This document shows positions 32,016 through 35,000 of a stretch of DNA of 56,896 bases, one piece after another (position 1 is the first letter of the stretch; every line of letters begins with the position of its first letter). The DNA is from Catajapyx aquilonaris (lineage: Eukaryota), in the NCBI GenBank assembly GCA_000934665.2, contig JYFJ02002444.1, forward strand, positions 1 through 56,896, given 5' to 3'. The translations under genes were made by a program, and so were the position numbers. The notes below the pieces were generated by a model that saw nothing but the letters and a program-made list of their open reading frames with translations, did no database searches and was not told where the DNA came from.

Positions 32016-35000
32016 ATGGCCAACATCAGCAGTTTTGGTCTCTATTTGTTGGCCACCCTTCTGTTGTTCCTGTCAGAGGCCAATCATTCCCTGGCCCTCC
32101 CAAATAATGCGGCCGAAAACATTCCCCGTGCTTCCCATCCAAAAGAACCCAGTAAGGAAGACATACTGGAACTGGCCATCCAATCTGTGCTGAGAGCTGT
32201 GGAGGATGGGTTTGGTCGATCAGGTAATGAGGGACATTATTTTATCAAGTCTTGTTAAAGTATACATTGAACATGCTATTTCTTCTTTCAGATAGTGCAG
32301 CTCGAGAAGTGAGAGAAATCAAGGAGGAAGTTTCATCACTGAAAAATGCATTAGAAGAGGGAATGAAATCATCAAAAGAGGAAATCCTATCATTAAAGGA
32401 AGGAATGAAATCATTAGAAGAGAAATTGAGGTAAGTGAGTAACCACGTGTAAACGCGCAGTTGATTTTATTGCCACCAATAGTGAAGGGTAGAATAATGG
32501 TGATGTCAATATGCCATCCCAGTCATCCTTTCCCAATATGTTAATTATTAAGAAAGTGGTTTAATTGAATGTTGATCTAAGATTCTAAGTGTACCGAATT
32601 ATTGTATTTCTTCAAAACATGTGCAATTCATTCCAGCCATGCAGTGGACACAATCACCTCATCGGTGATGGACATTATGAACAGCCCAACTGTCTGCCCG
32701 ACCAAATCTGGTAGGCGTAAGTGAACAGATCATTGCTTATGCCATTGACTTACGTGTCACTTATTCTATGCGTTGGATGAAAATATTAACAAGATTTGTG
32801 CTTATATTTGTTATTACAAAGTGACAGTCACAGTAAGTTACATTCACACTTTTGCAAGGTAACAGGAGGGGTGAAAGGTGCAGTGCATCTGACTCAGTGG
32901 TCATTTTTAGTGAACTCCCCCAGGTGGTTTGTCTTAACGGAAATACCACCCGAGGCGAAGCCAGAGATGACCCTGAACTCTGCACTAGATGAAGGGGGTC
33001 TCCCTGAGCTGGGATCGAATCCGGGATATTAACATCCGTGGGCGCGTGCGTTACTATAGGGAGTTTGTTTCCGACAAAAATATATTGTCAGAAACAGACA
33101 ATAATTATTTTTGTCCCTTATATTTGGCAGCTGGCCCACAATATTTTCTTCAAAAGTTTTACTGCGTCTACAGCAGTGATTCCCAACCTGTAGCAAATCA
33201 TTTAACCAAAGGGGGGAGGGCATCGCGTGTGGCCGCGATTATTTTCATAAGTTAAAAAATAACTAAAAAAAAATGAAATAAATTTTATAGGAAATTTCTT
33301 CAAAAGACACATACTAACACTCGGGGTGAGGGGGGTCGCAGGTTAATATCATAAAAGGGGGTCGAGACCCGCAAAAGGTTGGGATGAACCACTGATCTAT
33401 ATATACAGAGAAAATCGGTGTAAATTTTAAGGGTAAAAAGCGACGTCATCCCAACCTGGACCCCCCCCCCCCCTTCGCTGATGACGTAAAATGTGAACGG
33501 CCCCATGTAATTTGTTATAATTGTGCAATCTGTGCATGAACAGTCAGTCGCAGGATTAGTGGCCATGCCTTGAAAAGCAGCAGGTACACACCGATGTGCA
33601 TGACCTGCTCGTATGTTACACTCCCCATTATCCCTTGCGAGGTTTTGATCTCTCCTTTTGACTCCTCACAGGCCGGGATGTTCCAGTGCCCACACCTCCA
33701 CTTTATGCTCTGGACAGATGCAGAGGGGAGACCTTTTTAACGTGCCCAGACCACAGCACCATCATTTGCGAGGTTCAGTGGTGCGATTCAATTCCAGACT
33801 GTCCCAACGGAGAGGACGAGGCCAACTGTCCTGACGAATATGGTAATAGTATGCAAACCACTAAGCAGTCTTCCATTGCAAAAATCCTAATTCACTGCCT
33901 AACATTTGATTCTTACATGTCATACTGACGCTGCTGACAGTGGTCCGGGTCTTAACCGGTTTTAACAAAAGTGCTGCTGATTTATTAATATTCTCACTCT
34001 GGTGTGTGAGCTAATATTTATAAACTCCATAGCTTATTTTGGTATTGTTGGAAACGGTAACATTGAAGTTCCAAGCTGTAGCTTCATTAGAAGCTGATAA
34101 TAATGGAAGGATAGGGATTTAACATCGTTTGACTGTGCTTGTAATAGACTTAACAGTGCAAAATAATTCCACAACCACACATAAGTGTGGTAGCCTATAT
34201 GTTCCAGTTGGTGATGACTTCGTAATTTCACTTCCTCGACAGGGTGCCGACAGGACGAGTTTGAATGTGATGACGCTGACGGTGCCCGTTGCATACCGGA
34301 TTACAGACGCTGTGACGGATCAGTTGACTGCTTGGACGAAACCGACGAGAAAGGGTGCCGCACTGCCGGCACTGGTAAGCACAGAATTTACGTCATTGTT
34401 TGCATGATCGTTTCCGTTTCCGCGAGCAATGAGCATGCTTGGTTCGATTCCCGCACGTAAAATCTGTGCGATCAGGAGCGACGCTAGTTTCGCCGAGCAC
34501 ATGGCCTCCAGCTCGTAAAATTAGTTCAAACGCTTATGCGTGTCTGTTCTATCAGGATCTGTTCGAGCTTTTTGTTTGGAGGTGCAGTTTGGGCTGAGGT
34601 CGATAATTTGTGGGTGGGTAATTACTGATTTGCTAATGGTTGTGTGAGGTGAGCAGGTGCAATGTACCAAGGTCTAGATTAAGACTTAATCTAGACCTTG
34701 CACTGTACATCAGTCTTGCCAGAGTTGTCGAACTCGTTTCATACAAACTCATAACTTAAACTGAAACAGATATTAACAAGCGGAAAGGGAATTAAATGGA
34801 GCTGAAAAAAGACCGGTTTTGTGACGATGAAAAGAATGAAGACTGATTTACGTACACTATTTCTTTCAGATCCGACACCTTCCGCACTTCCTTCATCTAA
34901 TTGCTATGACCTTCTGCAACGAGGGCACAGCTCTTCTGGCGTGTACACCGTGATCATCTCTGGAGAAAATGTCACGGTGAGGCTCGCGGAAAAAGGTCGA

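Follow-up and report, generated by a model that had tools for sequence, protein, structure and literature searches.

Two LDL-receptor class A exons captured in the third intron of one fibrinogen-related gene of Catajapyx aquilonaris: a candidate case of exon shuffling with the ancestral state kept in neighbouring genes

The stretch of DNA analysed here, called the window, comprises 56,896 bases of contig JYFJ02002444.1 from Catajapyx aquilonaris and carries five fibrinogen-related (FBG) genes, arranged head-to-tail on the plus strand and located by tblastn with the exon peptides of the fourth, F4. Among these five genes only F4 has a block of ~1.9 kb in its phase-1 third intron, and the block contains two open reading frames (ORFs) of the LDL-receptor class A (LDLa) type. 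The capture at the DNA level of two LDLa exons together with the intron between them, specific to F4, is well supported; that these exons are also included in at least part of the F4 transcripts is predicted from sequence, and here the balance tips narrowly in favour. The genes of the array are as follows.

~5057-7425, plus strand: F1, found by tblastn with F4 exon peptides
~13553-15954, plus strand: F2, found in the same way
~24024-27901, plus strand: F3, found in the same way
32016-37063, plus strand: F4, from tblastn and a splice model
~49188-52402, plus strand: F5, found by tblastn with F4 exon peptides

Within F4 the exons, the two remaining parts of the ancestral third intron and the components of the block are these.

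32016-32223, plus strand: exon 1, with the start codon and a hydrophobic, signal-peptide-like N-terminus; donor CAG/gtaatg, phase 1
32292-32430, plus strand: exon 2, heptad-rich and rich in Glu and Lys; sibling matches by tblastn
32637-32710, plus strand: exon 3, ending in phase 1; 57-73% identical to F2, F3 and F5
32711-32859, plus strand: ancestral left part of intron 3, aligning with F1, F2, F3 and F5; BLASTN ends at 32856-32862
32860 to 34780-34804: F4-specific block, replacing 135-170 bp common to the siblings
32862-33054, minus strand by reading: very high-copy interspersed repeat within the block, recognized by contig depth; loose ends at 32930-33054
33055-33465: element of moderate copy number; its bases 33169-33403, 235 bp in all, are missing from other genomic copies
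33466-34780, plus strand: single-copy captured DNA, made up of an upstream flank, LDLa1, a 400-bp intron, LDLa2 and a downstream flank
33672-33842, plus strand: candidate exon 4 (LDLa1), 171 nt, phase 1-1, with an odd Cys3-Cys4 spacing
33843-34242, plus strand: intron between the LDLa exons, GT..AG, 400 nt, GC 0.378
34243-34374, plus strand: candidate exon 5 (LDLa2), 132 nt, phase 1-1, canonical
34805-34869, plus strand: what is left of the ancestral intron 3 on the right, with a BLASTN identity of 85-90% to F3 and F5
34870-34976, plus strand: exon 6, where the FBG region begins
35060-35201, plus strand: exon 7, FBG; PF00147 (Fibrinogen_C), E 6.7e-21
36567-37063, plus strand: exon 8, C-terminal half of FBG; PF00147, E 3.3e-44; stop codon at 37061-37063

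The boundaries of the block are defined by comparison with the sibling introns. In BLASTN the homology of the siblings to F4 between exons 3 and 6 ends at 32856-32862, and that of F3 and F5 picks up again at 34803-34805; by eye a restart of the right-hand homology already at 34781 is possible if a 16-nt gap is allowed. The preliminary description of this DNA had placed the breakpoints at 32859 and ~34805, nearly to the base where the alignments end, and had attributed the block to F4 alone, which is borne out by the uninterrupted introns of all four siblings. Multiple alignments show that F1, F2, F3 and F5 have in common one continuous intron-3 stretch of ~135-170 bp that is absent from F4. 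Local alignments on both strands detect no remnant of this stretch in the F4 block (they score 19-25, and shuffled controls reach maxima of 23-33), and the block thus replaces the ancestral intron sequence rather than merely interrupting it. Within the window there is no second copy of the block, except for a 59-nt piece at 33223-33281 that matches 40246-40190.

LDLa modules are characterized by six cysteines and a C-terminal Ca2+ cage of the form Cys4-D-x3-D-Cys5 ... D/E-E ... Cys6, with a canonical spacing of Cys3-[VILMA]-x5-Cys4. This pattern of six Cys and acidic cage fits both ORFs of the block (56 residues for LDLa1 and 43 for LDLa2 in the predicted frame) and no other sequence in any of the window's six reading frames; neither module has a tblastn match elsewhere in the window at E<0.01. 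All 12 Cys of the two ORFs are kept, as is the acidic Ca2+-cage motif of each. LDLa2, with Cys3-Cys4 as C-IPDYRR-C, fits the canonical spacing and scores 34.5 bits (E 2.4e-8) against Pfam PF00057, for which the curated cut-off is 24.1 bits; its best matches among solved structures in the PDB are LRP2, LDLR and VLDLR. LDLa1 matches solved structures in the PDB at E 3e-4 to 5e-3, among them TMPRSS6 (3.3e-4), VLDLR LA3 (6.2e-4) and TMPRSS2. In the ESM Atlas all 30 of 30 matches of each module fall in LDLa clusters (0.93 for LDLa1, 0.94 for LDLa2). By these sequence features LDLa2 is a canonical module of the LDL-receptor class A type and LDLa1 an atypical one, below the Pfam cut-off. There are 26 ORFs of at least 45 amino acids overlapping the block, and only the two LDLa ORFs match a relevant Pfam family; chance is not a credible origin, as two adjacent LDLa modules lie on the same strand in the sole register that keeps the frame of the host gene.

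The composition of the block is uneven. Summed depth of public DNA contigs is 13,752-79,570 over 32770-33117, 346-757 over 33118-33465 and 19-73 over 33466-34509 (six bins). Of the ~1.9 kb first described as a foreign block, ~1.3 kb (33466-34780) is unique and holds the LDLa exons; the left 0.6 kb consists of interspersed repeats. That the 235-bp piece is nested in the moderately repeated element is supported by a 14-nt inverted repeat within it (33181-33194 and 33371-33384) and by the joint 33168 to 33404 that would exist without it, which is present in 3-4 contigs per DNA run. Over the LDLa part variant rows rest on one contig each. Because depth there is 19-73 and a single alternative contig is seen, against 5-25 different contigs over the FBG exons, the unique part is not a multi-copy mobile element. 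At a likeness of at least 90% the DNA contigs show the LDLa segment in no other close copy, whether donor or paralog, and a protein word search with LDLa1 and LDLa2, in collections from which the organism's own proteome seems to be missing, returned no donor candidate sharing three words.

Several specific origins for parts of the block were considered and set aside. The high-copy repeat at 32862-33054 gives the impression of a short interspersed element (SINE), based on a tRNA-like (B-box-like) motif seen by reading; a tRNA-derived SINE, considered for this region and for 34400-34500, found no support, as ARAGORN predicts no genes and Rfam returns nothing relevant. A transposon-borne capture was likewise rejected: terminal inverted repeats, target duplications and a repeated right terminus are absent, and none of the 26 block ORFs has a transposable-element protein domain. 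Template switching during retroposition was discarded, the repeat and the LDLa exons lying, by reading, on opposite strands. The unique part also includes a perfect palindrome at 34668-34700, with 16+16-nt arms and 1 nt between them; its Rfam match to mir-4529 (E 0.81) is noise.

Physical support for the locus comes from contigs of three public DNA runs of one sample (X1-X3), perhaps the assembled sample itself; the stretch is also matched by a further run, X5. In all three runs of the first sample exact contigs spanning 32639-32939 cross the left end of the block, reaching 221 nt beyond it in one direction and 67-80 nt in the opposite one, and exact contigs spanning 34163-34935 link LDLa2, the right end of the block and exon 6; other exact contigs tile 33149-33617, 33596-33783 and 33994-34189. 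Neither end of the block is an assembly join, both being bridged exactly in three of three runs. Run X5 leaves 33466-34857 uncovered, and those of its pieces that match F4 exons are judged to be derived from paralogs because they carry 4-21 mismatches; it is evidence for neither side. A second contig series of approximately equal depth also carries the block, and is likewise seen in intron 7 (36249); its variants lie at 33559, 33586, 33792-33857, 34024-34144 and 34681. This series is probably the other haplotype; less likely, the entire gene has been duplicated very recently. It flanks but leaves uncovered ~34336-34650, just after the LDLa2 donor, which may reflect a structural difference.

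The block is derived and confined to F4, as had been proposed: four of four siblings are uninterrupted, and the intron flanks group F4 with F3 and F5, F1 and F2 being farther. The right flank of F4 is 87-90% identical to those of F3 and F5; for the left flank identity is 82% with F5 and 75% with F3, and identity to F1 and F2 is 60-79% depending on the flank. Over these flanks F4 is as close to F3 and F5 as the latter are to each other, and the split between F1/F2 and F3/F4/F5 has 91/90 support in the left-flank tree. If intron sequence decays in a roughly clock-like way, F4 is nested, and one gain is preferred over repeated identical losses. In exon 8 the synonymous divergence (dS) of F4 from F3 and F5 is 0.17-0.19; together with the lack of a donor at 90% likeness or above, this makes the capture young on the scale of the family, not ongoing. 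The phrase "caught in the act" used in the preliminary description is for this reason not retained, the more so as both contig series carry the block.

The F4 gene model connects the captured exons to the host without loss of frame. The eight-exon model is open and encodes 489 amino acids; it measures 1470 nt including the stop codon, rather than the 1461 nt first given. All seven introns begin with GT and end with AG, and exons 4 and 5 (171 and 132 nt) are symmetric, phase 1-1, in a recipient intron of phase 1, so that the earlier statements on canonical splice sites and matching phase hold, as does the proposal that a genomic segment was captured with its own intron: the two LDLa exons and the 400-bp intron between them are of compatible phase. 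The frame also survives exon skipping, giving 432 amino acids without exon 4, 445 without exon 5 and 388 without both. The pyrimidine fraction of the acceptors is 0.85 for exon 4 and 0.70 for exon 5, compared to 0.55-0.75 for host exons, and the exon 5 donor (CTG/gtaagc) is good. Exon 1 is homologous to the first exons of the siblings by tblastn, and exon 2 likely forms a coiled coil, judged from its heptads.

The course of events that we propose begins with F4 as a secreted coiled-coil/FBG lectin gene, as its predicted domains suggest, within a young tandem family. After the split from its nearest sister copies, intron 3 lost ~135-170 bp and gained ~1.9 kb, the step that we regard as demonstrated. 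The donor would be a multi-LDLa gene, and the route break-repair or ectopic recombination rather than a transposon of its own. Exon definition would then include both LDLa exons in at least part of the transcripts; the predicted inclusion form consists of a signal peptide, a coiled coil, two LDLa modules and the FBG domain in 489 amino acids, and skipping of both exons would restore the ancestral form of 388. In the inclusion form the Ca2+-dependent LDLa pair might dock a ligand or partner with basic residues beside the sugar- or acetyl-binding FBG head. The fullest version of this proposal is speculative and, in our estimate, rather unlikely: F4 would be an expressed, alternatively spliced lectin in which the LDLa pair acts as a new Ca2+-dependent docking arm for the FBG head, a recently born LDLa-LDLa-FBG architecture not described for fibrinogen-related proteins. 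As part of the same tentative proposal the arm might hold, for example, a protease or an endocytic partner, by analogy to the collagen stalk of ficolins.

It may be that the capture is real and yet the LDLa ORFs enter F4 mRNA at a negligible level or not at all, being a decaying gene fragment in a long intron; this we consider possible, if on the unlikely side. A number of observations weigh against inclusion of the LDLa exons and speak for such a silent passenger. Frame compatibility alone is cheap and is weak evidence of exon use, phase 1 being shared by three of the five ancestral introns; with an orientation of one in two, it would arise by chance in about one in three to one in six cases. 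The exon 4 donor (ATG/gtaata) is mediocre, and the second contig series has a 1-nt deletion at position +3 of the intron at the LDLa1 donor. Between the two series LDLa1 differs by three amino-acid changes (I181T, A191D or E, Y197D) and one purely silent codon change, all covered Cys being kept; with more amino-acid than silent changes there is no sign of constraint. The claim that both LDLa modules are intact is upheld for the six Cys in each and must be qualified for LDLa1: although its acidic cage is intact, its Cys3-Cys4 segment (C-EVQW-C) has four residues only, and its PF00057 score of 16.5 bits (E 0.0099) is below the cut-off. F4 itself might be decaying, given that exon 8 has a 23-residue insert rich in Asp, Glu and Gly (36735-36810) that is absent from five of five sibling exons, and that of the two Cys around GGWWY the second is replaced by Gly (36929-36931), this Cys being a nearly invariant residue present in all five sibling exons and in at least 90% of 98 FBG proteins. 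Exon-8 dN/dS is ~1 for all pairs and branches (0.8-1.8 pairwise among six copies) and does not distinguish F4.

Against a silent passenger stand the open frames of both LDLa ORFs with every Cys and both acidic Ca2+-cage motifs preserved, and the sizes and acceptors of exons 4 and 5, which are equal to or better than those of the host, such that default exon definition should see them. All six exon-8 copies compared are open, which together with dN/dS ~1 suggests diversifying lectin evolution rather than wholesale decay; the diversification appears to concern the binding half of the FBG domain. At least partial inclusion of the LDLa exons is thus the reading towards which we lean, by a small measure.

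The LDLa-FBG architecture could instead be older than F4, the block having arrived by gene conversion or unequal crossing-over from a diverged, LDLa-bearing FREP paralog. The family is large, as shown by the 5-25 different contigs found over the FBG exons at a likeness of at least 90%; the block ends within sequence homologous between paralogs, as conversion tracts would; and the terminal branch of F4 is longer in the left flank (0.13) than in the right (0.05). This origin is nonetheless improbable, as no second LDLa-bearing copy is present in the DNA contigs at that likeness, no other LDLa copy is present in the window, and LDLa is absent from all of the 179 nearest FBG proteins of other organisms. 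Even less probable is that the founder of the array already had the LDLa exons and that the siblings lost them. A tree of exon-8 proteins, with 12 FBGs as outgroup, recovers the array as monophyletic (100/99) and does not settle the branching order within it; were F4 sister to all others, one loss would equal one gain. The nesting of F4 among F3, F4 and F5 depends on intron-flank distances and a clock assumption, so that the polarity is good rather than formal; taken as it is, it would require repeated identical deletions or conversion in the siblings, and the stretch that the siblings share is not a remnant of the block. Finally, an assembly chimera, in which half of the gene or the block itself was wrongly joined, is barely credible. 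The contigs do stop short of crossing the high-copy repeat at 32939-33149 (the sole part not bridged by short-read contigs), and the DNA runs are possibly from the assembled sample and so not independent; exact contigs nevertheless cross both ends in every one of the three runs and tie LDLa2 to exon 6, and the complementary breakpoints together remove exactly one sibling stretch, which renders two separate, unrelated loci implausible.

The remainder of the array shows further signs of duplication, with two isolated terminal exons that are partial duplications within it.

17542-17979: extra terminal FBG exon after F2, whose own terminal exon is at 15495-15954
46665-47117: lone terminal FBG exon between F4 and F5

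By tblastn there is also a minus-strand FBG fragment at the end of the window. An element whose ORFs, on the minus strand at 22147-22865, 28612-29332 and 38835-39246, resemble C2H2 zinc fingers recurs with 87-88% identity between copies in the spacers that follow F2/F3, F3 and F4. There is also homology between the 3' flanks of F3 (28000-28357), of F4 (37183-37491) and of the lone exon at 46665-47117 (47211-47480), and this, together with the recurring zinc-finger element, indicates that the unit of duplication exceeds the gene. Downstream of F4 an ORF at 38034-38273 (minus strand) resembles a fragment of a non-LTR reverse transcriptase, by reading alone. In F1 the exon-6 acceptor position (6530-6545) reads TTTCAC, not TTTCAG; F1 may use another acceptor or may be defective. 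Paralogous DNA contigs exist in which sequence like 32677-32683 (exon 3) is fused directly to sequence like 34894-34898 (exon 6), in three contig forms with 3, 25 or 28 letters between and at single-copy-like depth; intron 3 is therefore missing from part of the family at other places in the genome, these members being either retrocopies or an intron-less subfamily.

Exon shuffling has mostly been inferred from old, finished products. At F4 the state before the event, kept in four sibling introns, lies beside the state after it, with breakpoints known to within a few nucleotides and with the intron that was imported retained; from its sequence the locus is a candidate for a textbook type of exon shuffling in which the ancestral state is kept next door. 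If the LDLa exons are spliced in, F4 would let the birth of a new architecture among immune lectins be dated and its mechanism read, and would offer a test of how fast a captured module is accepted, as judged by polymorphism, by inclusion that is optional and by changes that accompany it in the FBG head; should they stay out of the mRNA, it would be an instructive near miss showing how cheap frame-compatible captures are. Were the docking-arm proposal true, one genome would display the gene in its ancestral form, the scars left by the insertion and protein variants that still segregate.

Comparison with known proteins places the combination apart from its nearest relatives. The closest FBG proteins are from echinoderms, cnidarians, sponges, a hemichordate, chelicerates and a frog, none more than 57% identical to F4 (best 49% and 57%), a scatter that lends no support to the hexapod framing of the preliminary description. 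LDLa is not a partner domain in any of the 31 FBG matches from a word search (precomputed Pfam) or of the 50 top exhaustive matches, PF00057 is not among the 25 families listed, of 32, for the other 98 FBG matches, and a motif scan of the 179 nearest FBG proteins finds no LDLa; these are samples of the nearest FBG proteins and leave room for LDLa-FBG elsewhere in animals. The partners of FBG in the nearest proteins are otherwise many, including Sushi, PAN, Ig, fn3, OLF, TIR, kinase, trypsin, MACPF and C-type lectin. In the portions of the literature that were searched for this combination, no description of LDLa joined to FBG was found. The LDLa pair itself is like the arrays of the LDLR family in that its 5-residue inter-module linker is split, by reading, by a phase-1 intron; it differs from both the LDLR family and the type II transmembrane serine proteases in that the block contains no protease, YWTD or EGF exon. 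At the sequence level the similarity to LDLa modules of proteases and the LDLR family is generic and names no donor, and the donor type first suggested (perlecan, LRP or modular protease) finds no support in it.

Lectins composed of a signal peptide, a coiled coil and FBG are a common invertebrate FReD architecture, described, in the parts of the source considered, for molluscs and rotifers (PMC8878817). The skip form of F4 and all of its siblings share this tachylectin-5/techylectin-type architecture, and the nearest named FBGs, including techylectin-5 and carcinolectin-5, are 49-54% identical. F4 departs from FReD lectins in its missing GGWWY-pair Cys and in its LDLa modules. In vertebrate ficolins a collagen stalk is joined to FBG; no collagen match was found in F4 exon 1 or the block ORFs, and a stalk of the ficolin type is thus not indicated. 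The FREPs, CREPs and GREPs of gastropods combine FBG with IgSF, C-type lectin or galectin modules, according to the portions of the reports considered (PMC7588048, PMC8878817). Like these proteins and the ficolins, F4 would have an FBG recognition head with a second extracellular module added by domain accretion; unlike them, the added module is a pair of LDLa repeats, and F4 has no IgSF, collagen or lectin module.

The closest parallel lies in the way the exons were acquired. In the module-insertion model of Patthy, LDLa modules are among those spread by exon shuffling as phase 1-1 units. Lancelet genomes display active and recent exon shuffling that is biased to phase 1-1 and associated with repeats, as far as the consulted part of the study reports (Huang et al. 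2014, PMC4284660). F4 resembles both in having symmetric 1-1 LDLa exons in a phase-1 intron of a secreted-protein gene, with repeats at the site of insertion; it is set apart from both by the arrival of two modules together with their own intron, and by a pre-insertion state that is kept in four neighbouring paralogs.

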